Source: an uncultured virus (IMG/VR IMGVR_UViG_2049941000_000254)
Lineage: Duplodnaviria > Heunggongvirae > Uroviricota > Caudoviricetes
DNA: 20,000 bases
Strand: one strand, 5' to 3'
IMG/VR virus record: IMGVR_UViG_2049941000_000254
Of this stretch, positions 592 through 17,602 are shown piece by piece. The notes beneath the pieces were generated by a model, which worked only from the letters and a program-made list of their open reading frames with translations, ran no database searches and was not told the origin of the DNA. How positions within the stretch are numbered: the first letter of the stretch is position 1; each line of letters opens with the position of its first letter. The position numbers and the translations under genes were made by a program.

Positions 592-609
592 TACCGTGTT
601 CCCCCACCA
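592..609 (+). promoter_or_regulatory. Dispersed 50-bp element, copy 1 (left box only, cut by N gap)
   Basis: tACCGTGTTCC at 592-602 is identical to the start of copy 2 and is intergenic. The rest is hidden by the gap. Confidence 0.55.
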
Positions 610-1349
610 NNNNNNNNNNNNNNNNNNNNNNNNNNNNNNNNNNNNNNNNNNNNNNNNNNNNNNNNNNNNNNNNNNNNNNNNNNNNNNNNNNNNNNNNNNN
701 NNNNNNNNNNNNNNNNNNNNNNNNNNNNNNNNNNNNNNNNNNNNNNNNNNNNNNNNNNNNNNNNNNNNNNNNNNNNNNNNNNNNNNNNNNNNNNNNNNNN
801 NNNNNNNNNNNNNNNNNNNNNNNNNNNNNNNNNNNNNNNNNNNNNNNNNNNNNNNNNNNNNNNNNNNNNNNNNNNNNNNNNNNNNNNNNNNNNNNNNNNN
901 NNNNNNNNNNNNNNNNNNNNNNNNNNNNNNNNNNNNNNNNNNNNNNNNNNNNNNNNNNNNNNNNNNNNNNNNNNNNNNNNNNNNNNNNNNNNNNNNNNNN
1001 NNNNNNNNNNNNNNNNNNNNNNNNNNNNNNNNNNNNNNNNNNNNNNNNNNNNNNNNNNNNNNNNNNNNNNNNNNNNNNNNNNNNNNNNNNNNNNNNNNNN
1101 NNNNNNNNNNNNNNNNNNNNNNNNNNNNNNNNNNNNNNNNNNNNNNNNNNNNNNNNNNNNNNNNNNNNNNNNNNNNNNNNNNNNNNNNNNNNNNNNNNNN
1201 NNNNNNNNNNNNNNNNNNNNNNNNNNNNNNNNNNNNNNNNNNNNNNNNNNNNNNNNNNNNNNNNNNNNNNNNNNNNNNNNNNNNNNNNNNNNNNNNNNNN
1301 NNNNNNNNNNNNNNNNNNNNNNNNNNNNNNNNNNNNNNNNNNNNNNNNT

Positions 1350-1488
1350 CTTCTGCATAGCGCAGATGCCGTGTCACCGTAATCTTATGGATGATGAAGG
1401 CAATCCGAAAACCGAAGCGGTCACCTACGAGTCTCTTGACGAAATCGACCAGGAAACAATGAAGCAATTCGAAAAGATGGTAAAGTAA
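1350..1488 (+). CDS. 3' end of a hypothetical protein (start in N gap)
   Basis: Open frame FCIAQMPCHRN...FEKMVK*. Its TAA overlaps the next ATG (TAATG). Confidence 0.6.
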
Positions 1489-1748
1489 TGATTGAATACT
1501 TCTACTTCAATTTCGCCTACTCGCTGAACGGAAAGAAGAACCCGTATGCAAGGTACCATGACATGTTCTGCCGTGTCACGGTACCTAGTAGCCCGGATGC
1601 AGCAAAGGTTGCCCTTGAAAAGTTCTCCACCAGGTTCAAGCGAAACGAATGGGGCTTCCAGTACACCCAGGCCGAGTTCGATACTTTCCCGTCTAAACCG
1701 TGGTGGAAGGATACCGAAAGGGTCGTAGACTTCGATGACCTCCGTTAA
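1488..1748 (+). CDS. Hypothetical protein (86 aa)
   Basis: Translationally coupled start and codon usage like neighbouring genes. Confidence 0.7.
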   Translation: MIEYFYFNFAYSLNGKKNPYARYHDMFCRVTVPSSPDAAKVALEKFSTRFKRNEWGFQYTQAEFDTFPSKPWWKDTERVVDFDDLR

Positions 1749-1927
1749 AGGATATCACAGAGTATGAGGAGCCCTATTATCACTAAGAACACAATAGCCA
1801 CCAGGAACATTTCGTTTGCACACGGACCGTAGATGGCCGCATAGGGGTTTCCAGCATACTGTGCCACGTAAAGTGTCGTTGCTGTGCTTAATGATTGCAT
1901 AATCTTACCTACCCATAATGATTGCAT
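1745..1927 (-). CDS. Small membrane protein (C-terminal TM helix); true start may be 1900
   Basis: Hydrophobic tail MFLVAIVFLVIIGLLILCDIL. The start region is duplicated by a 27-bp repeat. Confidence 0.5.
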   Translation of the reverse strand: MQSLWVGKIMQSLSTATTLYVAQYAGNPYAAIYGPCANEMFLVAIVFLVIIGLLILCDIL

Positions 1928-1946
1928 AATCTTACCTACCCATAAT
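1889..1946. repeat. Perfect 27-bp tandem duplication
   Basis: taatgattgcataatcttacctaccca x2 (1889-1915, 1916-1942) followed by taat. Confidence 0.95.
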
Positions 1947-2050
1947 CTAGCTTATTCGTTCCACTTTTTCAAAGCTATTTGTCGGGTGATGACACATATC
2001 ACAGCTCGCATTCGGTGTGATTTCTGTCATCCATTCGGCGTGATTTTGCC

Positions 2051-2100
2051 TACCGTGTTCCACCTTCCCCAGGAAAACGGGGACCTGAGGGACCATCGTA
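2051..2100 (+). promoter_or_regulatory. Dispersed 50-bp element, copy 2
   Basis: ACCGTG 2052, GACCTGAGG 2082, CATCGT 2094. ATG at 2140. Confidence 0.85.
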
Positions 2101-2139
2101 TGGGCAACGAAACAAAAACAACTCAACAAGGAGACACTT

Positions 2140-2904
2140 ATGCCACAGGCTGCACACAACTTCTTCGAAAAGGAACTGAAACCTACCCTCGTCGATGTAT
2201 TCGGCGAAATCCTCGACTTCGTGACCTATGGTGACGAATGGTACCAGATTGGTGTCGAAAACGAAGGCGACATCGAGGACTGCGAATGGAAGGACCGCGA
2301 CGGCTTTTGGAGCCATAATAACGGCGGCGTTGAAATGTGTTTCACGCCGAACACCTCCATCCTGTACAACGGTTCCAGGCTCGCACCCTGCATCAAGAAG
2401 TGGGTCGATGACCAGTACGAATCCTGCAAGGAAGATGCCAAGGAAGACGAGGACTATCTCGCCTGGAAGGCCGAACAGGAAGAAAAGGGCGAAGACTCCG
2501 ATGTTGAAACCTGGCTCGCCGATACCGACGATGGTAACGAGTTCGAGAACAACCATGAGAACAACTGGATGGAAGCCTCCCCGTTCTGCAAGGTCGAGGC
2601 CTGGTTGCAGGGCCCGGACAGCTACCAGTTCCACGGCCCGGTCGAACCGAGTACGATCTTGAAACTCCACTTCGAGTTCTGCTTCAACGATGACCTCGGC
2701 TATGGCCGTCCGTACATTTCCTGGTGCCCCGGTGTCGGTGACCACCCGAAGTGTGAAGCCAACATCTTCTTCGAGGCCAAGGATGTCGAGAAGGTCCGTG
2801 AACTTATCAAGACCAAGATTCTCGAAATGGCAAAGTGCCCGGACAACGAGCAGCGCGAGAAGGAAGAGTTCTACACCGATGGACTGGATGACCGTCCGTT
2901 CTAA
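2140..2904 (+). CDS. Acidic hypothetical protein (254 aa)
   Basis: AAGGAG RBS, long ORF, strong codon bias, very D/E-rich. Confidence 0.85.
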   Translation: MPQAAHNFFEKELKPTLVDVFGEILDFVTYGDEWYQIGVENEGDIEDCEWKDRDGFWSHNNGGVEMCFTPNTSILYNGSRLAPCIKKWVDDQYESCKEDAKEDEDYLAWKAEQEEKGEDSDVETWLADTDDGNEFENNHENNWMEASPFCKVEAWLQGPDSYQFHGPVEPSTILKLHFEFCFNDDLGYGRPYISWCPGVGDHPKCEANIFFEAKDVEKVRELIKTKILEMAKCPDNEQREKEEFYTDGLDDRPF

Positions 2905-2940
2905 AAACAATTTTTAATTTTCAAAAACGAGGATAATATC

Positions 2941-3333
2941 ATGCAGAGATTCACACTTTCCAAATTTTACAGACCGGAAAATGTCGTGGAACACGCCGTA
3001 TCCCGAGTAAAGGAATGCGGTGGAACTCTCGACAAAATCCGCTACCCGAAACTCGGCGACGCAACCGGAGCAATCTGGGTCACCTTCACCAAGAACGGCA
3101 TGCCCGATGCGTTCCGCATCAGCAAGGGTCCCATGGGTCCCTACCGCCTGTTCGAACTCCCCGCGCTCACGTTCTTCCAGGACGATGATGTGGCGAAGTT
3201 CATGGTGGACACGCTCCGCGCCCTGCCGGACAAGGGTACACTCAAAACCACTAACAAGGCCGCATTCGAGGCAATCTGCCATTGGCTCCACAAGGCACCA
3301 CGGACGGTCATGAAGGAAATCAAGGAGGTATAA
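2941..3333 (+). CDS. Hypothetical protein (130 aa)
   Basis: GAGGA RBS, abuts the next gene. Confidence 0.8.
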   Translation: MQRFTLSKFYRPENVVEHAVSRVKECGGTLDKIRYPKLGDATGAIWVTFTKNGMPDAFRISKGPMGPYRLFELPALTFFQDDDVAKFMVDTLRALPDKGTLKTTNKAAFEAICHWLHKAPRTVMKEIKEV

Positions 3334-3702
3334 ATGTACAACAAGGCCAAACGCTACAACATCCCGACATACAAGGAATCTAAGGGCATGCGCGGGGAAC
3401 TCATTCGCAAGGTGGTCAACTATCTCCATCGGCTGAATGATGAAACCACCATCCCTACCTTCCGTCACAACGCGCACTTTGCCATCCTGACGGCGCACAT
3501 GATTGGGTCGAGGGAACGGTGCGATGACGGCACGATGATTGCATTGCAGTTCTATTCCCCGGAGGCCGACCGCATGCAGCATGTATGTGCCGAGGAACTG
3601 TATCGACAGGTCGAGGCATGGATGCCTCGCCGCATCGAGGACAAGCGCATCCGAGTACGCCTGGAGGGCACCTATGTGAGCCCGAGGTACTTCAAGGCAT
3701 AA
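3334..3702 (+). CDS. Hypothetical protein (122 aa)
   Basis: AAGGAGGT RBS, starts immediately after the upstream stop. Confidence 0.8.
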   Translation: MYNKAKRYNIPTYKESKGMRGELIRKVVNYLHRLNDETTIPTFRHNAHFAILTAHMIGSRERCDDGTMIALQFYSPEADRMQHVCAEELYRQVEAWMPRRIEDKRIRVRLEGTYVSPRYFKA

Positions 3703-3704
3703 CC

Positions 3705-3754
3705 AACCGTGTTTACCGGATCCCCCGAACAGGGTGACCCGGTGTCACATTGTA
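3705..3754 (+). promoter_or_regulatory. Dispersed 50-bp element, copy 3
   Basis: ACCGTG 3706, GACCCGGTG 3736, CATTGT 3748. ATG at 3784. Confidence 0.85.
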
Positions 3755-3783
3755 TGGGCAACATAACAAACAAGGAGACTATT

Positions 3784-4410
3784 ATGAAGAAGCTCTTGCT
3801 TATTACAATTACGTTGCTTCTTGCAACCGTGGCGTTTGCGGAAAAGCCATCAGGTGTATGGCGGTTTGCCCGTACCAATTCGATGAACTCCACTTCATGG
3901 AGTCATCCCGGTTCCATGATTAACATAGACAGCAAGGTGGTATGTCACTACGCTGGGCAGATCAACTTCCCGTTAAACCAGGAAGGTACTTGTGACAGAA
4001 TACTTATCCTGCACCTTGCGAGGGCGCAAGCCATGGAGGAAAAAGGCAAGATTATCGGGCTGTATTGCGCATACGACTGGTCATACCCGGACATGGGTGG
4101 CAACTTCTTGACCAATGATGTATATAGGGAGAATTGCCCGGATATACTGGCGACGGTAAACGGTGGATTCGACGTGATAGGGGAATATTGGTTCAAGCCG
4201 ATGGAAAACCAGGCCATTTATTATGAGGACGGTATCCCAATCAGGCAGACACTATCTAACACCAGGGAAGTTCTCAACAGGTTCGACAAGCGGTACGAGA
4301 ACCAAATCCGGTACCGAGACACATACGACTGGATACTCATGAGACCTGGATATGGATGGGACCAATGGGAACGGCCCGGAAGCGTATACGGTTCGCGAAT
4401 GGGTAAATAA
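3784..4410 (+). CDS. Secreted/periplasmic hypothetical protein
   Basis: AAGGAG RBS before ATG 3784. Classic signal peptide MKKLLLITITLLLATVAFA|EK. Confidence 0.8.
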   Translation: MKKLLLITITLLLATVAFAEKPSGVWRFARTNSMNSTSWSHPGSMINIDSKVVCHYAGQINFPLNQEGTCDRILILHLARAQAMEEKGKIIGLYCAYDWSYPDMGGNFLTNDVYRENCPDILATVNGGFDVIGEYWFKPMENQAIYYEDGIPIRQTLSNTREVLNRFDKRYENQIRYRDTYDWILMRPGYGWDQWERPGSVYGSRMGK

Positions 4411-4461
4411 AAAACGTTCCCGGAAACAATGAAATAGCTGATGCAATGCATATTGACGGCA

Positions 4462-4496
4462 ATGGTTGCCATGCGACCTGCCGTTTGCTACATTTT
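4462..4496 (+). promoter_or_regulatory. sigma70-like promoter with extended -10
   Basis: TTGCCA (4466-4471)-N17-TACATT (4489-4494) with TGn. Near-identical motif at 12557-12591. Confidence 0.7.
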
Positions 4497-4515
4497 AAGT
4501 AAAAAGAGGTGTATT

Positions 4516-5070
4516 ATGGATAAGGAACAATTAGAGAGACTTTTGAATGTGGTTAAGAACGCTGCTGAACAGTTCGGGGGTATATATTCCCGGATATNNN
4601 NNNNNNNTAAGAACTACTGGAAACTGGGAAAGGACCAATTCGGAGATACTCTGTGGATGCAGAAGCCCCGCATCTGCCCCAATGGATACTGGGAGGTGGC
4701 GATCGTATTTCATTACCCGAAAGGATGCCGCCCCGGGAAGGGGGACTCGCGTTTCTGCTCAATCATTGCGAATGAGCTGTCGTCGGCATCTTCTGCCATA
4801 TTCGAGGGCTTGATGCCGGATGATAAGCGGTTGCAGTTTGCGGAGATTATCCGGGCAATAGTTATCGCGTCCCGGTATTCCTGGATGCTCAAGAGGGGTG
4901 ATACCACCTTGGCACATGTGCCGGGGGAGGAACTTGCCCTAAACAAGCAGAAATCCAATCTGCCAGGTTTTATAAGTTCAGCAGTTCATGAAATAAGGAG
5001 AATCGACCATTTTGTCATCCCTGAACTGGTTAAATTGGCTGACAAGATGTTCAAACGGTCTACCGTGTGA
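4516..5070 (+). CDS. Hypothetical protein (contains 10-N gap)
   Basis: GAGGT RBS before ATG 4516. Open on both sides of the gap. Confidence 0.7.
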   Translation: MDKEQLERLLNVVKNAAEQFGGIYSRIXXXXKNYWKLGKDQFGDTLWMQKPRICPNGYWEVAIVFHYPKGCRPGKGDSRFCSIIANELSSASSAIFEGLMPDDKRLQFAEIIRAIVIASRYSWMLKRGDTTLAHVPGEELALNKQKSNLPGFISSAVHEIRRIDHFVIPELVKLADKMFKRSTV

Positions 5071-5110
5071 CCAAGGTCCCCCGATACGGGGGACCCGGTG
5101 TCATATCGTA
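5061..5110 (+). promoter_or_regulatory. Dispersed 50-bp element, copy 4
   Basis: ACCGTG 5062, GACCCGGTG 5092, TATCGT 5104. Perfect inner stem GGTCCCCC-GATAC-GGGGGACC. Confidence 0.85.
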
Positions 5111-5142
5111 GGGACATACAAAGGTATTGTCCACCCAAAGTG

Positions 5143-5171
5143 TTGCTAAGGATGTTGGAACGATATATAAT
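5143..5171 (+). promoter_or_regulatory. sigma70-like promoter
   Basis: TTGCTA-N17-TATAAT. Confidence 0.55.
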
Positions 5172-5194
5172 GATCGTGACGCTACCTATCCCAC

Positions 5195-5223
5195 AATATA
5201 GACTTTTATAGTATCTATGTCAA
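5195..5223 (-). promoter_or_regulatory. sigma70-like promoter, antisense orientation
   Basis: Minus strand TTGACA (5223-5218)-N17-TATATT (5200-5195). Confidence 0.55.
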
Positions 5224-5247
5224 GTAANNNNNNNNNNGAGAACAACC

Positions 5248-5448
5248 ATGGCACATTTACCACTAGATGAACGCTTCATCCCGCAGCCGCGCACCACCGT
5301 GGACGGCAAGCGGGTATGGTGCGTATATGACCGCGAGCGCAAGGGGTACTCCACCTACACTTGCCACGGCAAGTACAAGAGCAAGCGCGAGTGCCAAATG
5401 GCCATCGTGCTTTGGAATGTCCAAAAGGGGGAGAACTGGTTCCGATGA
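5248..5448 (+). CDS. Hypothetical protein (66 aa)
   Basis: ORF with typical codon bias. Stop overlaps the next start (ATGA). Confidence 0.7.
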   Translation: MAHLPLDERFIPQPRTTVDGKRVWCVYDRERKGYSTYTCHGKYKSKRECQMAIVLWNVQKGENWFR

Positions 5449-5699
5449 AACGCAAGACCTTCAAGTGCCAATTCAACTCCGCACAAGCCATGGACGAACG
5501 CAACGTCATCGGCGCGAAATATCACATGTCCTACGGCATCAACATCAACCGCATGGACATGATGAAAGGCATCCCGGAGAAGAAGCAGGAAGACTATGAC
5601 CAGAAATTCATCGAATGGTTCGTGAACTTCCATGCCGAACTACTCCACATCCAGGACTGGGACAGGTTCCCCGAANNNNNNNNNNGATTCTGCTTTTGA
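5445..5699 (+). CDS. Hypothetical protein (MKRKTFKCQF...; end uncertain because of gap)
   Basis: ATGA coupling, GGGGAG upstream, strong codon bias. Confidence 0.65.
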   Translation: MKRKTFKCQFNSAQAMDERNVIGAKYHMSYGININRMDMMKGIPEKKQEDYDQKFIEWFVNFHAELLHIQDWDRFPEXXXXFCF

Positions 5700-5765
5700 A
5701 GAAACGCGCAGAGGAAATCCACGAAGGACTTAACTTCAACAACTTGTGAACATGAAGGAAAATAA

Positions 5766-5909
5766 ATGAGACGTATCGAAATTAAACGAGACATCGCCGC
5801 GCATACCCCGGTATCCGAGGTGTTGAAAAAGTTACCGAAGACCCTTACCCTATTTGTCGGTCACCCGAAAGTTGGTAAGAGCCTTATACAGCACATCGCA
5901 GGAAAATAA
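5766..5909 (+). pseudogene. Truncated/internally deleted paralog of the 5910 gene (47 aa)
   Basis: 5757-5820 closely matches 5901-5964 (MRRIEIKRDIAAHTPVSE vs MRRIEIERDIATHTPVSE). Later fragments (accgaagac, gccttat, tacagcacatcg) also recur in the downstream gene. Confidence 0.65.
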
Positions 5910-6743
5910 ATGAGACGGATCGAAATTGAACGAGACATCGCTACGCATACCCCGGTATCCGAGGACATTCTGGACATGCTGAACAAGTTGAAAGCATGGA
6001 CACCGAAGACACTGGAACAGGTCATCGAGGTGGGCAACCGCCTTATCCACGCGGCAAACGAGGACATCTTTTACAGCACATCGAAAGAGCGCAAGGCAGA
6101 AAAGGTACCCTACTTCATGGACATGAAGGGGAAGATGATTAAGTACCCCAACGGCATCGCGCACTCCACCGAGTACATCTATGTCACGGGAGTCGAGATT
6201 GACGATAAGGAGTGGGAGACCACGGCCAACATTACCGGGGTTCGCTTATCCAAGTACAACCGCATCGGGAACGATGAAATCCAGTTGTACACCCTCCCTA
6301 TCCGTTTCAGTACCGTAGTTGACATGAAGGAAGATGCGGTCATCGTCCTGGTGTCAAATTACCGTGTCGAATACACCATCGTGTCCAATTTCGCCGAGTA
6401 CAAGGATGCCGTGGCCAGGATGAAAGCATTTATCCCCATGGTGCAGTACATCCCAGACTTTATGACCCGAGACATGGTAAAGCTTTCTTTACACAAGAAG
6501 ACCTTTACAAAGGGCCATGCCAAAAGCGATAATAAAAGAGGTAAACAATGCCAGAATCAGCCTACATCTACAACGACAAACAAGGCAACATCGAAGTCAT
6601 GCGCGGAGCCTTCGGCTATAACATCATCCTCACCCGCAACGATGGGAAATGGGACGGAAAGATGCACACAACGTCAGCATGTGTCGGGGACTTCTCGAAA
6701 GAGCGTCTCCAAGAAATTGCCACGAAACTCCAAGAGTTCGTAA
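5910..6743 (+). CDS. Hypothetical protein; last ~65 codons overlap the next gene and may be a spurious extension
   Basis: Long ORF, protein-like to about 6500, then out-of-frame overlap with 6548-6754. Confidence 0.7.
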   Translation: MRRIEIERDIATHTPVSEDILDMLNKLKAWTPKTLEQVIEVGNRLIHAANEDIFYSTSKERKAEKVPYFMDMKGKMIKYPNGIAHSTEYIYVTGVEIDDKEWETTANITGVRLSKYNRIGNDEIQLYTLPIRFSTVVDMKEDAVIVLVSNYRVEYTIVSNFAEYKDAVARMKAFIPMVQYIPDFMTRDMVKLSLHKKTFTKGHAKSDNKRGKQCQNQPTSTTTNKATSKSCAEPSAITSSSPATMGNGTERCTQRQHVSGTSRKSVSKKLPRNSKSS

Positions 6744-6754
6744 ACTCTATTTGA
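6548..6754 (+). CDS. Hypothetical protein, paralog A (68 aa)
   Basis: AGAGGT RBS. Close paralog immediately downstream. Confidence 0.8.
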   Translation: MPESAYIYNDKQGNIEVMRGAFGYNIILTRNDGKWDGKMHTTSACVGDFSKERLQEIATKLQEFVNSI

Positions 6755-6793
6755 TAGCCATACCAAAGGCGATATTCAACCCAAGAGGTAAAA

Positions 6794-7028
6794 ATGGCAA
6801 GTTCGGCCCCCATCTACAACGACAAGCAAGGTAACATCAGAGTAAGGCGCGGAGCCTTCGACTACAACCTCATCCTCACCCGCATTGNNNNNNNNNNNNN
6901 NNNNNNNNNNNNNNNNNNNNNNNNNNNNNNNNNNNNNNNNNNNNNNNNNNNNNNNNNNNNNNNNNNNCTCGAAAGAACGCCTTCAAGAAATCGTCACGAA
7001 ACTCCAAGAGTTCTTAAACTCGAATTGA
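6794..7028 (+). CDS. Hypothetical protein, paralog B (gap inside)
   Basis: AGAGGT RBS. IYNDKQGNI.V.RGAF.YN.ILTR and, after the gap, SKERLQEIVTKLQEFLNSN* (TGA 7026-7028) match paralog A. Confidence 0.75.
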
Positions 7029-7051
7029 TGACAAAATCGAGATTCAAAGAC

Positions 7052-7101
7052 TACCGTGTACACCAGGTGCCCCGTCCGTAGGCACCCGGTGTCGAATCGT
7101 A
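7052..7101 (+). promoter_or_regulatory. Dispersed 50-bp element, copy 5
   Basis: ACCGTG 7053, CACCCGGTG 7083, AATCGT 7095. Compensatory stem GGTGCC/GGCACC. Confidence 0.85.
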
Positions 7102-7125
7102 TCCGGTGCAACAAGCGAGGCAACT

Positions 7126-7380
7126 ATGACCATAACGCTCAATGACCCTATTCAGAAGAAGAGTATGAACAAGGAAGCCAACTCGAACGTGCTTGTATGC
7201 AAGACGAACATGTTCGGTGTGTTGAATGCTCTTGGTAACCGTGTGGACATTTTCGCCGGTATCAACTTCTTTGACCGGAAGAAGAAGCTTCTTCAGCGTA
7301 TCTTCCTAAAGTCACCTTATATCCGTTGTGCATTGTGGCTCGATAAAAAACGTATTAATTGTCTGGGGGTAAAACTATGA
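7126..7380 (+). CDS. Hypothetical protein (84 aa)
   Basis: GAGG RBS, follows element copy 5. Confidence 0.7.
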   Translation: MTITLNDPIQKKSMNKEANSNVLVCKTNMFGVLNALGNRVDIFAGINFFDRKKKLLQRIFLKSPYIRCALWLDKKRINCLGVKL

Positions 7381-7691
7381 TGATGGAATGGACACAGCGA
7401 AACGGTTCAATCGTATCTATTGACCTTGACGGAATCACTCGATTGGAATATGTTCCCAACGTGGAATATGGAAGACCGATGCTCACGTTGATGACATGCG
7501 ATGTCGTTGATACAATCAGCGGTCGCCCAGCATTGCCCGGAGATCCGACCTATGTGCCGGATAGCGATACAGCGGAAGTCCTAATCAGCCAACCTGAGTC
7601 GGAACCGACGAAATGGAAACTTTTCAGGATACCGGAGGAAATACTGGAACTGCGTAGCTTTATAGTGAAGTATAAGGCAAATGCAACCTAA
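7377..7691 (+). CDS. Hypothetical protein (104 aa)
   Basis: ATGA overlap with the upstream gene, GGGGGT RBS. Confidence 0.7.
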   Translation: MMMEWTQRNGSIVSIDLDGITRLEYVPNVEYGRPMLTLMTCDVVDTISGRPALPGDPTYVPDSDTAEVLISQPESEPTKWKLFRIPEEILELRSFIVKYKANAT

Positions 7692-7692
7692 C

Positions 7693-7742
7693 AACCGTGC
7701 TCACGACTTGCCCATTCAATATGGACCTGGTGGAGCATCGTA
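7693..7742 (+). promoter_or_regulatory. Dispersed 50-bp element, copy 6
   Basis: ACCGTG 7694, GACCTGGTG 7724, CATCGT 7736. ATG at 7774. Confidence 0.85.
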
Positions 7743-7773
7743 CTGGCATCAATAACTGATAGGAGATTAGAGA

Positions 7774-8967
7774 ATGCGACAGGAATATGCAGCAATTAAT
7801 GGTTGGCGCAAGCTCGCTGCCCCGATTCTGTGGAATGTTTTCAGTAAGCCCGTGTCCATCGACAGCGAGCATACTGACCGTACTGTAGCCATGAACGATG
7901 CCCTTACCAACCTTCATCTGAACGCCGAAGTTGTAGGTCTCAAGCAGGGACCCGTAATTACGCGCTACATGGTCAAGGTGGGCGATGGAATTCGCGTACG
8001 CAATCTCCGCAACAACCTTGAAGATATTGCTATGCGACTCGGCGTACCCAGGAAATCCATTCGCATCGAATGCAACGATGGCCTTGTGGGCATCGAAGTT
8101 CCAAACGACATCCGTTCCGTAGTTCCGTGCCGTACAATCGTGACACCTGATATCTGCGAAAAGATGCAGTTCGGATCACTCAATATCGGGATGGGTGTCG
8201 ATATCATCGGCAACCCGGTGAAATTCAATCTCGCAAAAGCTCCGCATATGCTAGTGGCCGGACAGACTGGGTCGGGCAAGAGTGTGTTTCTCAACTCGCT
8301 CATTTGCAACCTGCTGATGAACAATCATCCCGATGAAATCGAACTTGTGCTTATTGACCCGAAGGGCACTGAAATGCAGGCTTACTCCATACTCAAGACT
8401 GTTAAGGTCATTAACAATGTCCATGATGCGGTCAAGAAGCTTGCATCCCTTGTCGATGTAATGGAAGAACGTTACAGAATGTTTACCGATGCAACTGCTA
8501 AATTTGGCCGTCCAGTCCGTACTCTCGATGACTATATGGAAACCGTCACCGACTATTCTAAGGATGTCAATAGACGCAAACGCATTGTAGTGGTCATTGA
8601 TGAAGTTGCCGACCTCATGGCATGTGACCGACAGGGAATGGAAACAAGCATATCCAGACTCGCGGCGAAGGCACGCGCTGCAGGTATCCATCTGGTGCTT
8701 GCCACTCAACGCCCGTCACGTGATGTCATCACGGGTACCATCAAGGCGAACCTGCCGACCCGCATTGCATTCCGTCTTCCGTCACAGGTTGACTCCAAGA
8801 CAATCCTTGACGAAATCGGGGCCGAGTCGCTTCTTGGACGTGGCGACATGCTTTTCAAGACTGCTGACGGGGTTACACGTCTGCATGGGTGCTGGATGTC
8901 CGATGACGATATCATGAACTTCATCAACATGTGCAGTACAATTTACAAGACTATCAAGCCTTGGTAA
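7774..8967 (+). CDS. ftsK: FtsK/SpoIIIE-family DNA translocase motor (alpha+beta domains only)
   Basis: GPVITRY and VGIEVPN (alpha domain), PHMLVAGQTGSGKS (Walker A), LIDPK, VVVIDEVADLM (Walker B), KARAAGIHLVLATQRPS, GAESLLGRGDMLF. Confidence 0.95.
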   Translation: MRQEYAAINGWRKLAAPILWNVFSKPVSIDSEHTDRTVAMNDALTNLHLNAEVVGLKQGPVITRYMVKVGDGIRVRNLRNNLEDIAMRLGVPRKSIRIECNDGLVGIEVPNDIRSVVPCRTIVTPDICEKMQFGSLNIGMGVDIIGNPVKFNLAKAPHMLVAGQTGSGKSVFLNSLICNLLMNNHPDEIELVLIDPKGTEMQAYSILKTVKVINNVHDAVKKLASLVDVMEERYRMFTDATAKFGRPVRTLDDYMETVTDYSKDVNRRKRIVVVIDEVADLMACDRQGMETSISRLAAKARAAGIHLVLATQRPSRDVITGTIKANLPTRIAFRLPSQVDSKTILDEIGAESLLGRGDMLFKTADGVTRLHGCWMSDDDIMNFINMCSTIYKTIKPW

Positions 8968-8982
8968 CAAAAAGGAGAACCA

Positions 8983-9450
8983 ATGAAGAAACTGTTTAAA
9001 TGGATTGCCAAGAAGAACGCCAATGAACGCAAGGCCCATCCTGTCCGCTACAATATCGTGTTGATTGTGCTTATGCTGATATTGAACACAATGTTGGTAC
9101 TGGCCGCTATTGTCCCGGAAGACAGATTGGAACACCCGATAAGGTTATTGGTGTTCTTCGCATTCTCGATTGAATATGGTGGCATAATCTGCCATCTGCT
9201 TGATAGAGTCATCGGTCGATATACCAATGACTGGCGCATAGCGAACATTGTCAACCCGCAAATCATTCAGCTCATTCAATCATTGGAAAAGGCTGAACAG
9301 GATATCAACGAGGGAAAAATTGCATGGCTAGGAAATTTCTACAATCCGTCGAAGGAGCGCGTTGAGACCACCCGAGTACCTATCGAGGAATACCTTGTTG
9401 ACCCGAAACCGGCGGAAGAACCAACCGTATCTGGGAAAACACCGGAATAA
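8983..9450 (+). CDS. Membrane protein (two predicted TM helices)
   Basis: AAGGAG RBS. Hydrophobic segments IVLIVLMLILNTMLVLAAIV and IRLLVFFAFSIEYGGIICHLL. Confidence 0.75.
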   Translation: MKKLFKWIAKKNANERKAHPVRYNIVLIVLMLILNTMLVLAAIVPEDRLEHPIRLLVFFAFSIEYGGIICHLLDRVIGRYTNDWRIANIVNPQIIQLIQSLEKAEQDINEGKIAWLGNFYNPSKERVETTRVPIEEYLVDPKPAEEPTVSGKTPE

Positions 9451-9472
9451 GTTGACCTGGTGGTACATCGTA
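9423..9472 (+). promoter_or_regulatory. Dispersed 50-bp element, copy 7 (upstream of sigma gene)
   Basis: ACCGTA 9424, GACCTGGTG 9454, CATCGT 9466. Overlaps the end of the upstream CDS and has a weak hairpin. Confidence 0.8.
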
Positions 9473-9518: not shown

Positions 9519-10298
9519 ATGCTTAACTGCACATCATATCTTCGCATTCAACTATCCAAGGCTTATGAAGCCGCAAAGAAAGCCATTTCCTCTGCAGACA
9601 TTGAAAAGGAATACATCAAGAAGGCGAAGGCGGGATCGCAGGTAGCCAGGGATACTTTGTTTAACCTTTACATCCCGTTTGTCATCAGTTACGCTCGCTC
9701 AAGTACCTATACAATGTATAGCGGAGACATGGGTGACCTTATCAGCGCTGCCGCTATCGGTTTCGATCGAGCCATCGAACTATTCGATAGCACCCTCGGT
9801 TATGAATTTGGGTGCTATTACAAATGGCACATCAAGAACGCTATGAACAAGGAGCTTTATGGCGATTCCGTAGTTGCTGTCCCAGAAAACTTGCAGAAAC
9901 CAGCAAAGAACCCAGATGGGAAGCAAATGCTTGATGAAGATGGCCTTCCGGTCAATCGCAATCCGGTAAAAGTGATTTCGGGCGACAGTTTGGTAGGTGA
10001 TGATGATTCCAAGACTACGCTATTGGAAACTTTGAGTGAGGAAGGCGAAAATGGAGCCGAACAAGCCGAAGAACGAAATCGGGCAGAACTTCTCCACGAA
10101 CTGTTATCATCCCTCCCTGAAATTGAATGCAATGCAATTAAGCAGATGGTGATGAACGATGACCATGTATCCACCCGTGAATGGGGCGAAAGCCACGGCT
10201 GCTCCCACGAATGGGCCCGCAAGGTCAAGAACCGCGCATTGAAGCGTCTCCGCGAGAAGATGGGTGAAATGTACATCGAGGATCGTTTGGCGGTGTAA
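9519..10298 (+). CDS. sigma70-family RNA polymerase sigma factor (divergent)
   Basis: Region 1.2/2: AKAGSQVARDTLF...DLISAAAIGFDRAIELFDSTLGYEFGCYYKWHIKNAM. Region 3.2: GDDDSKTTLLETL. Region 4: LSSLPEIE...STREWGESHGCSHEWARKVKNRALKRLR. Confidence 0.9.
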   Translation: MLNCTSYLRIQLSKAYEAAKKAISSADIEKEYIKKAKAGSQVARDTLFNLYIPFVISYARSSTYTMYSGDMGDLISAAAIGFDRAIELFDSTLGYEFGCYYKWHIKNAMNKELYGDSVVAVPENLQKPAKNPDGKQMLDEDGLPVNRNPVKVISGDSLVGDDDSKTTLLETLSEEGENGAEQAEERNRAELLHELLSSLPEIECNAIKQMVMNDDHVSTREWGESHGCSHEWARKVKNRALKRLREKMGEMYIEDRLAV

Positions 10299-10324
10299 AT
10301 GTCATAATAAATGGCGGTGTAAAT
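10288..10324 (+). repeat. 13-bp direct repeat
   Basis: tggcggtgtaaat at 10288-10300 and 10312-10324. Confidence 0.8.
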
Positions 10325-10325
10325 T

Positions 10326-10673
10326 ATGATTGTTTGCGACTATTGCCAACGGTATGCAACATCGGCTTGCCAGAACTGCGGGTATTTCAGTTCCCTCTAC
10401 GGGAGCATCACCGGGGAGTATTCAGGTGAATGGGTAACGCCGGAAGAAGCCGACCGTGAACTCCGCGAAATGTTCCCGGAAGACTTCCATGGAAAGTTCG
10501 TCACGAAGTTGATACTTGCCTACAGATTTGCCTCCCGCGTTATACTCCCGTTCCTACTGTACGAGAAGTGGAACCGCCCGAGACAATACATCAAGGGCGC
10601 GTATTATCCGTGGGAACACCAGGCAACCAGTTTACCACCGCGGGAAATCCCGGAAACCGGTTTACCATTTTAA
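10326..10673 (+). CDS. Hypothetical protein with N-terminal CxxC-x6-CxxC putative zinc ribbon
   Basis: CDYC QRYATSA CQNC near the N terminus (spacing approximate). Confidence 0.7.
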   Translation: MIVCDYCQRYATSACQNCGYFSSLYGSITGEYSGEWVTPEEADRELREMFPEDFHGKFVTKLILAYRFASRVILPFLLYEKWNRPRQYIKGAYYPWEHQATSLPPREIPETGLPF

Positions 10674-10696
10674 TTTTTCATTTTTTGAGACAGACC

Positions 10697-11023
10697 ATGC
10701 CTAGCGAAGCCAAAGTAGAAGAAGACATAAAGAAGAATAACGGTGTTATCCCCATGGAACACGTGGACGTAGTAAGGGAAGAAAAGTTTGAAAATGAGGG
10801 CCTGGTGAAGTGCTATGACCGCCAGGGCCGCATCGTTGAAATCGCATTCCTGCAATCGGGAAACGGGTGTACCATCCAGTACATCGAGGCCCCGGCAAGA
10901 CCGGACGCTCCCCCCGATGAACGCATCGTCCGTTGGAAAAGCGGGGAAGTGTTCCGAACCTGGAAAGAAGAAGGTAAAACAAAGTTTACGAGGTTGCAAG
11001 ATGAACAAGAGTGGCACTATTGA
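10697..11023 (+). CDS. Hypothetical protein (MPSEAKV..., 108 aa)
   Basis: Non-overlapping start ATG 10697, protein-like composition. Confidence 0.7.
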   Translation: MPSEAKVEEDIKKNNGVIPMEHVDVVREEKFENEGLVKCYDRQGRIVEIAFLQSGNGCTIQYIEAPARPDAPPDERIVRWKSGEVFRTWKEEGKTKFTRLQDEQEWHY

Positions 11024-11075
11024 TAGCAACACCCGCCAAAACATGAGCCCGTGGTTGGCATACAACCTGGCTGAT

Positions 11076-11260
11076 GTCAACTACGCACCGCCTAAAGGCG
11101 GTGAGCTTGTAATGCTGCCTATGTTTCCATGGCAGGCTTACAGTACGATCGGACGGTTGACAGACGCCCTGCCCTCCAGGTTTTCAGAGTGCCGTCGAGC
11201 GGCATCCTGAACGAGAAGGGATGTTTGCTCTTCCGAGCTATGTTGATTGCGGCATTCCAG
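11076..11260 (-). ncRNA. Putative TnpB omega/reRNA scaffold (5' limit approximate); guide is the flank from 11075 downwards
   Basis: reRNAs are known to overlap the tnpB 3' end and run through the element right end. Boundaries are inferred. Confidence 0.55.
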
Positions 11261-12303
11261 TCGGAATCGAGGACGGTGCCGTTCTTGCAGTAGAAGCGGC
11301 GGTTCTTCCTGGTTCCGTTTTTCTTTCCGGTAGTGCAATCGGTCTTGCTTGTCATGAACGGTGAAACTGTTTCTACCCGCTTGCCAGCGAGCAGTGCCTT
11401 GTATGACAAGATTTGTTTTAACTTGTAGAACGGTACCTGGGAAATCCTACGGTTGTGGTCTTTCCGCTTCTTGCCGTCCTTGGTCTTTGAAGTCTTCTGC
11501 TTTATTTTCGAAAGGTCTTCGAGCACGATGATGCTTGCGTCGGTGCTTTCGATGATGGCGTTCGCCACTCGGCAGCACATGTCGCCCGACTGCCGCTGCT
11601 CCGTCTTGCATAGCTTGCTCCGATGCCTGTACGCACTCTTCGTGCCCTTCTTCTGCAAGCAACGCTTCAGGTAGCGAACCCTACGCCGTCTTGCATTGTA
11701 TTCCTTGTCGTCGAGCATCAACCCGTCTGAAGTTATCGCGAAACGGCGCTCACCCAAATCAACTCCTATGCAATTTTCGTCCCGCAAAGGTACTTCCGGA
11801 ACCTCGAACGACAGCGCCAGGAAGAACCTGCCATCACGCTTGAATATCAGCGGATCGTGCACGGGATACTTTCCGAACATCTCTTCCAGCTTAGGGTATT
11901 TTACGATATCGGCATCGACCCGCTTTCCTGGCTTGGACGAACATAATGAAATCGAAGATAGGCTTAGACGGGAATACAGGCGCTTGTCAAGACGCATCGA
12001 AAGATTCTTCTTGGCCGGAACCTTGTGCTCGACATGACCGTTGCTGTTGATTGAACGGAACGCCGATATGCAGTCCTTGTATATCTTGATTATCCCTTGA
12101 GACGGTATCGTCGGGAACTTCTCGCGCAATTCGTAGTACACTGCGTTGTGCACGGACTGCAAGTCCAGGTGTACCTTACGGGTGGTTATGATGTCAGCAC
12201 ATTCGTTGTACGCAAGTCGAGACACTTCAAGAAGGCTCGTCCAGTATTCCTGGCCGGCTGTATCCTTGAATTTTAGCTCGGCATTGTACGTTATCGTACT
12301 CAT
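11119..12303 (-). CDS. tnpB: RNA-guided endonuclease TnpB
   Basis: RuvC-I IGVDLGE, RuvC-II IVLEDLS, RuvC-III DSDWNAAINI. 394 aa. The zinc-finger cysteines are partly lost. Confidence 0.93.
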   Translation of the reverse strand: MSTITYNAELKFKDTAGQEYWTSLLEVSRLAYNECADIITTRKVHLDLQSVHNAVYYELREKFPTIPSQGIIKIYKDCISAFRSINSNGHVEHKVPAKKNLSMRLDKRLYSRLSLSSISLCSSKPGKRVDADIVKYPKLEEMFGKYPVHDPLIFKRDGRFFLALSFEVPEVPLRDENCIGVDLGERRFAITSDGLMLDDKEYNARRRRVRYLKRCLQKKGTKSAYRHRSKLCKTEQRQSGDMCCRVANAIIESTDASIIVLEDLSKIKQKTSKTKDGKKRKDHNRRISQVPFYKLKQILSYKALLAGKRVETVSPFMTSKTDCTTGKKNGTRKNRRFYCKNGTVLDSDWNAAINIARKSKHPFSFRMPLDGTLKTWRAGRLSTVRSYCKPAMET

Positions 12304-12556
12304 CTATACTTCACCCGTGTTCATCAAAAAGCTTATATATTCTTGGAANNNNNNNNNNNNNNNNNNNNNNNNNNNNNNNNNNNNNNNNNNNNNNNNNNNN
12401 NNNNNNNNNNNNNNNNNNNNNNNNNNNNNNNNNNNNNNNNCCATGCATATATACAGTATGACTACAAGAAAGTGTTCCCAAAGTGTTCTCGCGGGCATTC
12501 CTATGACGCCCTAAAGGGACGGCATCTTCCTGCCCGCACTTTTTGTGAAACTAGCC

Positions 12557-12591
12557 ATGGTTGCCACCTAAGCCCAAATATGCTACATTTT
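12557..12591 (+). promoter_or_regulatory. sigma70-like promoter with extended -10
   Basis: ATGG-TTGCCA (12561-12566)-N17-TACATT (12584-12589). Twin of 4462-4496. Confidence 0.7.
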
Positions 12592-12632: not shown

Positions 12633-13442
12633 ATGTCGATTACAAGTGAAATACAGGCCAACCTGAACATGATGAAGATGTACCCCGGGCTCAACGGAAA
12701 GGTGTCCGCGTACCTCGAATCCATCATGAGCACTAACCCCATGGCCGCCTACGGCTACGAGCACAACGGCTCGAAGCTGCAACCGCTCACGGAAGCTACC
12801 GTGGACCGTATCCTCGATCACGGAAAGAATGGCATGATTATCATTACTTCCGACCGTGGCGAACGTACGCCCGCAGAGAACTACCAGAAGCGCAATGAGC
12901 TGCTCGGGGACATCAAGGCAATGAACCTCTCGTACATCGTCGTCTACGGCGGGTACAGGGACAAGATGAAGTCCCCTCCCCTCACCGTGAACGGGGAAAC
13001 CTCCTTCGTCATCCCCGCACACGACCGCAACGGCAACCTGGTCCCCTGGGACGTGCTGTACCAGTTTGCCAAGGACATGTGTGCCAAGTATGACCAGGAT
13101 TCCGTGCTCGTCCAGGAACCCGGCAAGGGACCGAAGTACATCGACAAGGACGGCAACGAAGTGACCGACCTCAGCGGTCCGGTCGTAAAGAACGACCTTA
13201 CCCAGGAATACTTCTCCTCGCTCATCAAGTCCAAGCACTATGACGAGGCGCATCCGGACAGGCTGAAACGGTTCAGCTTCACGGAACCGGCAAAGGATGA
13301 ACCGGGGAAACCCGCCCCGAAGACCGAAGCCGCCTTCTTCGTGAACCCTCCGCCCTGCACCCAGGGTGAAATGAGGCGCCGCGGTGCCGAAGGCGAAATC
13401 TTCGCGCTTTGGGACGAAATCCCCAGGGACGTGCGGATCTAA
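12633..13442 (+). CDS. SAM lyase (T3 SAMase)-like protein with terminal extensions
   Basis: IIITSDR...EN, GGYRD...ETSFVI and MCAKYDQDSVLV resemble, in order, T3 SAMase motifs as recalled (VLVSAFR...VN, GCYRE...EEKTVRV, ACNEWEQDCVLV). GGAG RBS. Confidence 0.65.
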   Translation: MSITSEIQANLNMMKMYPGLNGKVSAYLESIMSTNPMAAYGYEHNGSKLQPLTEATVDRILDHGKNGMIIITSDRGERTPAENYQKRNELLGDIKAMNLSYIVVYGGYRDKMKSPPLTVNGETSFVIPAHDRNGNLVPWDVLYQFAKDMCAKYDQDSVLVQEPGKGPKYIDKDGNEVTDLSGPVVKNDLTQEYFSSLIKSKHYDEAHPDRLKRFSFTEPAKDEPGKPAPKTEAAFFVNPPPCTQGEMRRRGAEGEIFALWDEIPRDVRI

Positions 13443-13453: not shown

Positions 13454-13486
13454 AAGAAACCCACCGGTGATTCCGGTGGGTTTTTT
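13454..13486. terminator. Intrinsic terminator, probably bidirectional
   Basis: AAACCCACCGG-TGATT-CCGGTGGGTTT-TTT between convergent genes. Confidence 0.9.
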
Positions 13487-16264: not shown

Positions 16265-16316
16265 CCACCGTGTCCTACGGCCTCCGTGGACCGGGGGACC
16301 TGAGGATACATCGTGG
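16265..16316 (+). promoter_or_regulatory. Dispersed 50-bp element, copy 8
   Basis: ACCGTG 16267, GACCTGAGG 16297, CATCGT 16309. Heads a divergent gene cluster. Confidence 0.9.
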
Positions 16317-16343
16317 GAATGTTCAGTTGAAAAGGAGATCTAT

Positions 16344-16712
16344 ATGGCAACATCTATGGGAGTATTTACCGCAGTCATGTATCGTCAGCATCTGCATGAT
16401 AGCATTGTTGCCCGTGCGAAGTCCGAGCACCCCGATATGGGCACAGACGAACTGCGTGCGGTGTCCGTGAAGCTTTCCAAGCCCGTAAGTTTTACCTTGA
16501 AGCGTTTTCTCTGCGACCCGCTGAAAGTGAAAATCACTGCTATGGTGGCAGGTTCTGACGGGGTGCCGCGCATGGTCTGCGAATACAATGGCAAGGAAAG
16601 CCGCATTGACTTTGGCGAGATGCCGAACCATACCCTGCACAGGGTGTTGGAGCTGCTCAAGGCGCCAAAGACCGATATGAACGAATTGGTGTTCAAGGAA
16701 TTGAGCAAGTAG
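16344..16712 (+). CDS. Hypothetical protein (122 aa)
   Basis: AAGGAG RBS, follows element copy 8. Confidence 0.8.
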   Translation: MATSMGVFTAVMYRQHLHDSIVARAKSEHPDMGTDELRAVSVKLSKPVSFTLKRFLCDPLKVKITAMVAGSDGVPRMVCEYNGKESRIDFGEMPNHTLHRVLELLKAPKTDMNELVFKELSK

Positions 16713-16760
16713 GGAGAATGGTGCCCATATGGGCATCAGTTTCCACTGGAAACAATATGA

Positions 16761-16812
16761 CCACCGTGTATCGGCTGTCCCACGATTATGGGGACCTGAG
16801 GATACATCGTGG
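16761..16812 (+). promoter_or_regulatory. Dispersed 50-bp element, copy 9
   Basis: ACCGTG 16763, GACCTGAGG 16793, CATCGT 16805. Confidence 0.9.
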
Positions 16813-16873
16813 GAATGTAAATGAGGCAAGGGGAACCGCCTTTGAGAGTTCCCGACAAAAACGGAGTTCAACT

Positions 16874-17014
16874 ATGAAATATGGTGTTTTCGCAAATCTC
16901 ATCACGGGCAAGCAGCTTTTCAGCGTCCACCGCACCGAATCGGGTGCACAGAAGGCCTGCGCCAAGGCAGGCAAGAATGGGGCATCTTTCATGGTGCTCC
17001 CCATCAAGAAGTAA
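16874..17014 (+). CDS. Small basic protein (46 aa, MKYGVFANL...)
   Basis: GGAG RBS, lies between element copy 9 and a terminator. Confidence 0.7.
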   Translation: MKYGVFANLITGKQLFSVHRTESGAQKACAKAGKNGASFMVLPIKK

Positions 17015-17027
17015 CCATTAACCACAA

Positions 17028-17068
17028 AGGGCGGAACCCCTTACTCCCGGGGGTTCCGCCCTATTTTT
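17028..17068 (+). terminator. Intrinsic terminator
   Basis: AGGGCGGAACCCCT-loop-GGGGGTTCCGCCCT-ATTTTT. Confidence 0.85.
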
Positions 17069-17089
17069 GGGCATTTGTGGGTGCCGGAA

Positions 17090-17141
17090 CCACCGTGTCC
17101 GGAGTTACACCGGAACACGGGGATCTGATGGTACATCGTGG
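17090..17141 (+). promoter_or_regulatory. Dispersed 50-bp element, copy 10
   Basis: ACCGTG 17092, GATCTGATG 17122, CATCGT 17134. Directly after a terminator. Confidence 0.88.
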
Positions 17142-17166
17142 GGATGTTCAACGAAAGGAGATGCAT

Positions 17167-17343
17167 ATGTCGCAGGAAAGCAAGAAAATCGTCGGTTTCA
17201 TCAAGAACCTCGCAATCACCAATTCCGCCTATGTGGCGGTCTTGAACCGCCTCAAAATGATGACTGCCGACAAGCAGGAACGCTTTTTGAGCAAGTTTCA
17301 CGGAATGGAACTGTCTGATTTTATGATGGCTGTGGAGGGCTAA
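17167..17343 (+). CDS. Small hypothetical protein (58 aa)
   Basis: AAGGAG RBS 6 nt before ATG 17167. Confidence 0.75.
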   Translation: MSQESKKIVGFIKNLAITNSAYVAVLNRLKMMTADKQERFLSKFHGMELSDFMMAVEG

Positions 17344-17345
17344 AA

Positions 17346-17504
17346 ATGAAAAATAATTTTAAGAGTGCTGAAATTACGACCGACCGCACCAAAATGGCTC
17401 GTTCGTTCGCAAGGCAGATGGGCGTGAACGCACAGAAGGTCAAGGCCGAACGCAACCGCATTGACCGAGAGAAGAGGGAGAGGGTTCTTATGCGTGGATT
17501 CTAG
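17346..17504 (+). CDS. Small basic protein (52 aa, MKNNFKSAEI...; not in the ORF track)
   Basis: GGAGG RBS, starts 2 nt after the upstream stop, fills the space before copy 11. Confidence 0.6.
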   Translation: MKNNFKSAEITTDRTKMARSFARQMGVNAQKVKAERNRIDREKRERVLMRGF

Positions 17505-17550
17505 GGGAGAGGTGCTCAGGTGAACACTAATTCCCTCATGGACAGTGTTC

Positions 17551-17602
17551 CCACCGTGTATCATCTGTCCCCCGATCTTGGGGACCTGAGGATACATCGT
17601 GG
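17551..17602 (+). promoter_or_regulatory. Dispersed 50-bp element, copy 11
   Basis: ACCGTG 17553, GACCTGAGG 17583, CATCGT 17595. Confidence 0.9.

Follow-up and report, generated by a model that had tools for sequence, protein, structure and literature searches.

A fixed-length quasi-palindromic element before the genes of one block in uncultivated rumen phages, probably a class-specific promoter

The window analysed here is the whole stretch of 20,000 nucleotides from the uncultured virus record IMGVR_UViG_2049941000_000254 (IMG/VR, Caudoviricetes), which harbors ten complete copies of a 48-base element running from a left box ACCGTG to a right box CATCGT. The element is real, strongly non-random and conserved in at least five phage contigs. 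We assign a probability of roughly 0.58 to the reading that it is a class-specific promoter located within a dyad and read by host RNA polymerase together with a phage factor, as a variant of the promoter-early stem-loop (PeSL) cassettes. The promoter assignment is argued for by the single orientation of the copies, their restriction to one block of genes, the distance to the start codons, the copies at terminators and at a divergent junction, the fixed length and the -10-like right arm. The likeness to PeSL cassettes is suggested by the matching layout and by the gene flux of the block on a colinear backbone.

A search of the window with the pattern ACCGTG-N24-GACCYGRKG (at most two mismatches) returned copies at 2052, 3706, 5062, 7053, 7694, 9424, 16267, 16763, 17092 and 17553, all ten on the + strand. 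In 200 dinucleotide shuffles of the window the pattern came up 0.26 times on average and at most twice; none of the shuffles reached ten. The right box starts at +42 in every copy (CATCGT in seven; CATTGT, TATCGT and AATCGT once each). These positions, their strand and the exact +42 distance had been listed in an earlier inspection of the DNA without database searches (the sequence-only reading), and all were recovered. Its start-codon distances hold as well; they are 25-63 nt for the window copies and about 140 nt for copy 5062, where the next start codon lies beyond a 10-N mask. With the cut copy at 593 counted as copy 1, it had further remarked that copy 8 opens a divergent cluster and that copy 10 follows an intrinsic terminator, and these correspond to the copies at 16267 and 17092 below. 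The truncated copy at 593 is present too; it ends at a masked N block, of which the window contains several, rather than at a true gap, and the sequence upstream of it shows homology to that flanking a complete copy in the related contig G002. Two sub-classes are distinguished by the base after CATCGT, which is G in class I (CATCGT-GGGnATGTT) and A in class II (CATCGT-ATGGnCA). The copies in the window are:

593..609, + strand: cut copy, 5' part only, ACCGTGTTCCCCCACCA and then N, ended by the masked block
2052..2099, + strand: class II element (A after CATCGT), start codon at 2140
3706..3753, + strand: class II element with right box CATTGT, start codon at 3784
5062..5109, + strand: class II element with a perfect 9-bp apical stem, fold -33.6 kcal/mol, z = -3.5
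7053..7100, + strand: class II element with apical stem GTGCC/GGCAC, compensatory with respect to GTCCC/GGGAC elsewhere, start codon at 7126
7694..7741, + strand: element with a weak hairpin, preceding the FtsK-like gene 7774-8967
9424..9471, + strand: element (ACCGTA) with a weak hairpin, overlapping the 3' end of open reading frame (ORF) 8983-9450 and preceding the sigma-factor gene
16267..16314, + strand: class I element (G after CATCGT) that opens a + strand cluster behind genes on the minus strand and is orthologous to the block start of contig G003
16763..16810, + strand: class I element, 26 nt downstream of the palindrome 16721-16736
17092..17139, + strand: class I element, 22 nt downstream of the intrinsic terminator 17028-17069
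17553..17600, + strand: class I element with the strongest hairpin in the window, fold -33.7 kcal/mol, z = -4.4

When IMG/VR was scanned with the exact pattern, three contigs proved to carry the element, G001, G002 and G003 (203, 42 and 253 kb). With up to three mismatches these contain 31, 48 and 44 copies on one strand only, with none on the opposite strand and none for the reversed pattern used as a control. Scanning one genome per species (185,579 species) led to a fifth phage-like contig of 11 kb, binned into a metagenome-assembled genome (MAG), with 21 copies on one strand; the MAG label was not used as host evidence. Besides this contig, the species genomes gave only five single matches, which were taken as chance, and the element is thus not a host promoter type of any genome scanned. 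In total, the four other uncultivated phage contigs add 144 further copies, on one strand. A weight matrix, also suggested in the sequence-only reading, was built from the 133 copies of the window and the three IMG/VR contigs (cut-off 15 bits), to which the counts below refer unless stated otherwise. In the 99%-complete 253-kb genome (G003) it gave 71 matches of at least 15 bits, not in random orientation but on a single strand and all within 9.5-82 kb, a single 72-kb block, with no match in the remaining 171 kb.

Gene gain and loss are abundant in the block when relatives are compared, and the backbone is colinear. The copies occupy orthologous positions in phages that share 50-85% identity in the flanking proteins, and they have diverged outside the boxes, with a mean column identity of 68%. 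In the direction of transcription, each block starts with class I copies and continues with class II copies. The last gene of the element-bearing block, at its far end in the window, G001 and G003, encodes a sigma-70-family protein. In the window a block end (2052-9424, class II) is followed 6 kb later by a block start (16267-17553, class I). The sigma gene (9519-10298) and the block start at 16267 are likewise 6 kb apart in the window, and in the 253-kb relative the rest of the genome lies between them. This closeness could mean that the genome is arranged differently, that there is a second block or that two pieces were joined in assembly.

The element corresponds to one imperfect hairpin at the RNA level and to a quasi-palindrome in duplex DNA, in which the left box imperfectly mirrors the right box. 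ACCGTG (positions 0-5) is opposite CATCGT (42-47), with a C.C mismatch at positions 2/45 in 132 of the 133 copies and G and T at positions 3/44 in 83. Positions 6-9 pair with 38-41, an internal loop of fixed size follows (4 nt and 5 nt, positions 10-13 and 33-37), and a GC-rich apical stem (14-19 with 27-32) carries a loop of about 7 nt. What the sequence-only reading had taken for three separate boxes are actually the two arms of one hairpin. Its middle box GACCYGRKG is the 3' half of the apical stem with the loop; the position at +30 stands, but the true consensus is looser, (G/C)(A/G)CCYGG. The minimum-energy RNA fold is the full imperfect hairpin in 7 of the 10 window copies, and the two boxes are paired in the minimum-energy fold of 86 of the 133 copies.

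Covariation supports this structure. RNAalifold returned no consensus structure for a first alignment of 29 copies, and a fixed-column count and mutual information were used instead. In the mutual-information scan the top non-adjacent column pairs are 7/40, 8/39, -1/48 and 16/30, all of them hairpin pairs. In the gap-free alignment of the 133 copies, standard pairs make up 77.9% of the cells as compared to 72.0 ± 0.5% after shuffling, and cells changed on both sides number 180 as compared to 87 ± 8; neither value was reached in any of 500 shuffles. When the 3' partners are shifted by 1-3 columns, pairing drops to 35-51%. Compensatory changes are also seen between orthologous copies of different phages, such as GTGCC/GGCAC versus GTCCC/GGGAC, and in the fifth contig of 11 kb almost all copies have the apical stem GTGCC/GGCAC. 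Mismatches of the G.T and A.C types are equally common in the stems (106 versus 118, pair 3/44 excluded), and one strand folds as well as the other under RNA or DNA parameters, which points to symmetry at the DNA level and away from an RNA fold. A gap-tolerant search of four contigs found the boxes 42 positions apart in 55 of 59 matches (26, 37, 43 and 44 once each), in agreement with the earlier remark that indels are lacking, and gave no match on the opposite strand. The total length is thus constant, although the apical loop varies in sequence and register, as would be expected if the element is read as duplex DNA. An Rfam scan of the window at E values up to 1, likewise suggested earlier, gave no relevant match; the sole match is a weak snoRNA elsewhere in the window (E = 0.61).

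The copies are closely associated with gene starts and stand before almost all genes of the block. A Shine-Dalgarno (SD) sequence, start codon and ORF follow within 260 nt in 124 of the 133 copies, and the start codon is located 20-29 nt past CATCGT in 83 copies and 30-39 nt past it in 24 (107 together). According to the position table of the 133 copies there is no conservation 5' of position -3, and on the 3' side conservation continues to about +55. At least 16 of the 133 copies are just downstream of a hairpin with a T run, as counted with a crude rule devised for this analysis. In 14 cases a 16-bp palindrome of the family GTGCCCAnnTGGGCAC is found 26-30 nt 5' of the element, often with phased T tracts. 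All these palindromes belong to the class I (first) part of the block, and only some are followed by T runs and are then terminator-like. Their stem is similar to the one at the apex of the element. The window contains one of each:

16721..16736, no strand: 16-bp palindrome GTGCCCATATGGGCAT, of the family found 5' of the element
17028..17069, + strand: intrinsic terminator with a 14-bp stem and T run, -29.9 kcal/mol, immediately upstream of copy 17092

Terminators directly before copies and the divergent junction, with nothing conserved upstream, leave no other promoter candidate. Sigma70-type consensus sites show no enrichment in the window, with 22 against an expectation of 21.6, and a search for enriched 8-mers upstream of genes outside the block found nothing.

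The right box resembles the -10 region of promoters used by sigma-70-family factors. The CATCGT hexamer has A at position 2 in 132 and T at position 6 in all 133 copies, a near-invariance that is partly selected since the hexamer positions belonged to the search pattern. These two bases are the ones most needed by a sigma-70-family factor. Conservation extends to positions that were not selected: C at -2 (127/133), C at +18 (131/133), G at +29 (129/133), Y at +53 (128/133) and R at +54 (128/133). After CATCGT comes a G-rich stretch and then a pyrimidine-purine pair 6/7 nt downstream, which is C in 50 and A in 45 of the 54 class II copies and Y in 73 and R in 74 of the 74 class I copies. The hexamer with A2/T6 and a Y/R pair about 7 nt downstream are hallmarks that are also present at the phages' own sigma70-like sites.

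These sites form a second, very uniform promoter-like class, TTGCCA-N14-TGnTAYATT, which is sigma70-like with an extended -10. The class was first seen as TTGCCA-N17-TACATT in a consensus scan of the window, at 4466 and 12561. With TTGCCA-N14-TGnTACATT and at most two mismatches, the window and the three IMG/VR contigs contain 40 sites, which occur on either strand and for the most part not in the hairpin block:

4466-4494, + strand: second-class site
12561-12589, + strand: second-class site
Further second-class sites: 38 in G001, G002 and G003

Of the 40 sites, 22 have C at position 6 after the -10 and 27 have A at position 7; in 12 sites this A begins an ATG exactly 6 nt past the hexamer, which implies leaderless mRNAs. 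The two sites in the window precede ORF 4517-5070 and a gene of the S-adenosylmethionine lyase family, and they are kept at both genes in the relatives. The lyase gene (12633-13442, + strand), which likely has an anti-restriction function, is thus behind a sigma70-like site and not behind the hairpin element; a two-way terminator follows it at 13457-13483.

The sequence-only reading had stated that the element matches neither the sigma70 nor the sigma54 consensus. For sigma70 this is correct in that there is no -35 at 17 bp, but it overlooks that CATCGT has A2/T6, a G-rich discriminator and a Y-R start. For sigma54 (GG-N10-GC) the statement is upheld: nearly all copies have G at +38, but no conserved GC doublet stands 12 nt further on, with C at +51 in only 34 of 133 copies. 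The hint TGGCAC-N5-GGGCA occurs in some copies only, again without a conserved GC doublet. An ECF-type promoter (AAC-N16-17-CGT) was rejected as well, as its -35 position would fall in the variable loop.

In the promoter reading, the 3' arm would act as a -10-like hexamer (CAtCGT), followed by a G-rich discriminator and a Y-R start 6/7 nt downstream. Judged from these positions, transcription likely starts at about +53/+54, counted from the first A of ACCGTG, and the resulting leader of 14-25 nt would carry the SD sequence. The place of a -35 would be taken by the fixed-length quasi-palindrome that covers the upstream 42 bp, with CC-N-ACCGTGT as left box. The dyad may either extrude as a DNA hairpin or cruciform or bind a symmetric protein. 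We infer that the reader would be host RNA polymerase with a phage specificity factor, for which the candidates are an activator bound to the dyad and the sigma-70-family protein at the far end of the block:

9519..10298, + strand: phage sigma-70-family factor gene (Sigma70_r2, 1e-6; phrog_351, 2.6e-30), candidate specificity factor by inference only

The phage-specific transcription start signal postulated in the sequence-only reading is thus the interpretation best supported by position, strand, terminators, block and -10-like box, and falls short of being proven.

Several observations weigh against a promoter. The covariation of the arms is expected of an RNA hairpin and not needed by an ordinary duplex promoter. 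Under the promoter reading it could reflect a DNA hairpin or cruciform as in the N4 early promoters, a symmetric protein with the arms kept alike by some other process, or a second role of the sequence as a hairpin in the RNA of read-through transcripts. No -35-like box is seen in the position table 16-18 bp upstream of CATCGT, the conservation of the hexamer is partly a matter of selection as mentioned above, and terminator-like sites are not in excess in the window overall. A contig from an RNA library bridges copy 7053 which, if it is indeed RNA, means that the element is at least sometimes transcribed through. The runs used were one metatranscriptome and one run only guessed to be RNA; their assembled contigs, which were compared with 6968-12347, show no transcript 5' ends, and contigs cannot show starts. 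They derive from relatives and cover 12 and 8 of the 30 bins of this region, so that uncovered copies are no evidence. With respect to a phage polymerase, the RNA polymerase profile PF00940 gave no match, a weak result as the control genomes were also without signal. The large G003 proteins had no Pfam, PHROGs or PDB-sequence match to any RNA polymerase, and a search for the catalytic motif D-x-D-G-D found only one irrelevant 349-aa ORF.

Several of these points are better accommodated by an RNA hairpin in long early transcripts, which host RNase III or a phage endonuclease would recognise for processing, or which would act as a stability or translation element. Cutting would then free monocistronic mRNAs with a 5' end some 15-25 nt before the start codon. 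The sequence-only reading had favoured a promoter over mRNA processing; we retain this preference, but the covarying hairpin makes processing a more serious rival than it seemed, unlikely as we consider it. The minimum-energy folds, the covarying columns that are exactly the hairpin pairs, the excess of paired and doubly changed cells over all shuffles, the compensatory changes among orthologous copies and the contig over 7053 all fit this explanation. So does the arrangement with one element per gene in a one-directional block, like the RNase III sites among the early genes of T7. With about 20 bp and a fixed 4-nt/5-nt internal loop, the stem would give an RNA helix of about two turns, and internal loops are described, in the part of the source concerned, as limiting RNase III to one cut which leaves a protective 3' hairpin (PMC1540722). 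What disfavours processing is that copies follow terminators or stand at a divergent junction with no conserved promoter upstream of them, that G.U pairs are not in excess over A.C and the strands fold equally, and that the apical loop keeps a constant length, which is unusual for paralogous RNA hairpins. Moreover, the C.C mismatch is invariant and both boxes are conserved in sequence beyond pairing, no Rfam family matched in the window, and no phage RNase III was found by a search whose control was positive in 8 of 14 genomes. More doubtful than processing is a structure-gated promoter for the multisubunit host RNA polymerase, in which an apical stem-loop extruded by supercoiling would set the two boxes as a -35/-10 pair for a phage sigma factor. 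The spacer of 36 bp between the boxes minus the 19-nt apical stem-loop (positions 14-32) is exactly 17 bp. This idea agrees with the constant length, with the covariation in the apical stem and with the likeness of the right box to a -10, and leaves the pairing of the outer arms unexplained. The superhelical state of newly injected DNA would in this case switch on about 70 genes per genome, by an N4-like principle without a phage polymerase.

An improbable explanation, and slightly more so than structure gating, is that the element mainly serves to bind a symmetric phage regulator, as an operator or 'stoperator'-like site at every gene of the block, next to a weaker real promoter that escaped recognition. 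Mycobacteriophage stoperators are a precedent for many copies in one orientation, and the nested dyad symmetry, fixed length, box-wise conservation, confinement to one block in one orientation and the second palindrome at a fixed distance are all compatible with such a site. Protein half-sites, however, cannot explain covariation at non-conserved positions, the likeness to a -10 and to a start site would have to be fortuitous, and the position table contains no alternative upstream promoter motif. Less credible still is a site for DNA recombination, the alternative that the sequence-only reading had offered, or for transposition, be it an integron attC-like single-strand cassette boundary or a miniature IS200/IS605 hairpin element. 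An imperfect hairpin with conserved ends and fixed mismatches, present once per gene on one strand of a gene-flux block, would suit it, as would the many TnpB genes and one Y1 transposase gene of G003. The comparison of relatives proposed in the sequence-only reading did find the block rich in gene gain and loss, but the copies are inherited with their genes: they sit at orthologous sites and have diverged except in the boxes. They are also tightly coupled to the downstream start codon and not to the upstream gene. An attC site has consensus core sites RYYYAAC...GTTRRRY and a variable length. The integron version was rejected, as tyrosine recombinase (PF00589) was found in none of the three contigs with a control positive in 14 of 14 genomes, the boxes are ACCGTG/CATCGT instead of attC core sites, and the length is fixed. 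The weight matrix matched nothing outside 9.5-82 kb, the G003 Y1_Tnp gene at 186.5 kb included, so the ends of that insertion sequence (IS) are unlike the element and a miniature element of PATE/REP-like type was discarded too.

As to the surrounding genes, an FtsK/SpoIIIE-family ATPase gene (7774-8967, + strand, E = 7e-49) is located just 5' of the sigma gene in the window, and this order is kept in G001 and G003. A TnpB gene with a Cas12f1-like TNB domain (11119-12303, minus strand) is inserted just past the block. G003 has at least eight TnpB-like genes besides its IS200/IS605 Y1 transposase gene. Two tandem pairs of paralogous ORFs were observed in the window: in 5766-5909/5910-6743 the first is a short N-terminal copy of the second, and 6548-6754/6794-7028 are similar small genes of which the second is broken by an N mask. 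A 27-bp unit occurs in two tandem copies (1893-1946) in the non-coding stretch 5' of copy 2052. In G002 and G003 several copies of the element directly follow sequence resembling a tRNA 3' half (GGTTCGAxxCC), and judged from such sequences tRNA genes seem to be interspersed in the block. The ORF at 17599-19218 (+ strand) encodes a 539-aa protein with four repeats of the phage domain phrog_20046, of unknown function, which is also present in a GIY-YIG/NUMOD homing-endonuclease-like protein of G003. The nearest homologs of the G003 terminase large subunit are terminases of the gp17 (T4-like) type with only 25-31% identity, and PHROG matches of G003 include myovirus baseplate-wedge and tail proteins; these similarities suggest that the phages are at best distant relatives of the T4-like myoviruses.

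If the copies are promoters, they define a whole temporal class of about 70 genes, a quarter of the genome, in giant rumen phages known only from metagenomes. Their architecture would then be undescribed for any sigma-dependent system, as a 42-bp dyad of fixed length that has one -10-like arm and lacks a -35. If the element is an RNA processing site instead, it would represent the densest known phage mRNA-processing system. The motif is in addition a sharp marker by which this phage group can be found and oriented in metagenomes, and it delimits transcription units and corrects start-codon calls. The element, the phage sigma factor and a supercoiled template together make a concrete test system.

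Among known systems, the PeSL cassettes of T4-like phages, reportedly described by Arbiol in 2010, are the first to be compared. Their layout, as given in the part of the source concerned, consists of a stem-loop, an AT-rich stretch, a promoter, SD sequence and ATG in regions of gene flux (Comeau 2014, PMC4122927). Like the element described here, they are, in the same excerpts, repeated intergenic modules before small genes of unknown function in gene-flux regions, in their case of T4-related myoviruses, with copies near indels between relatives. The upstream stem-loop followed by SD sequence and start codon is also shared, the stem-loop being found here in a minority of copies (the palindrome in 14 cases, a hairpin with T run in at least 16 of 133). 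In contrast, the PeSL promoter of that account is of the sigma70 type (-35/N17/-10), whereas here a 48-bp quasi-palindrome of fixed length with CATCGT and no -35 at 17 bp is found. As far as those excerpts allow comparison, the rumen phages further differ in that they keep a separate sigma70-like class elsewhere and in that the density of copies is higher (71 in 72 kb).

The early promoters of phage N4 are DNA hairpins which are extruded by supercoiling and read by a virion RNA polymerase, as summarised in sections of PMC4496689. They are inverted repeats with conserved bases and with variable bases that need only to pair, a pattern that is matched here by the covariation. According to this review, promoter activity in vivo is altered by a hairpin set between -35 and -10. 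Unlike the present dyad of about 55 nt with about 70 copies per genome, the N4 hairpins, according to the same sections, are small, centred at -11 and present three times per genome at the end injected first. They are read by a giant T7-like virion polymerase; such an enzyme was not found here by PF00940, with a control that was itself without signal.

The RNase III sites of phage T7 lie between early genes in one polycistronic transcript without terminators between them. These signals (R1.1 being an example) are, in the portion of the source that deals with them, irregular two-turn hairpins with an internal loop, on the coding strand between early genes and similar to each other in sequence (PMC1540722), all of which recalls the element. 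Unlike them, several copies here follow terminators, and the RNA-type G.U bias is lacking.

Promoter sets that depend on phage sigma factors include those for gp28 and gp33/34 of the Bacillus phage SPO1 and the late promoters of T4 gp55. They share with the element a non-host consensus, the control of one temporal gene class and a phage with its own sigma factor and, as far as the searches made here show, no RNA polymerase, but they are short motifs in duplex DNA that have neither dyad symmetry nor covariation. The literature searched for related systems contained no description of the element, the motif letters themselves not being among the search terms. Most likely, the element is a variant form of the class-specific promoter cassettes of phages, whose hairpin architecture is unusual and undescribed.

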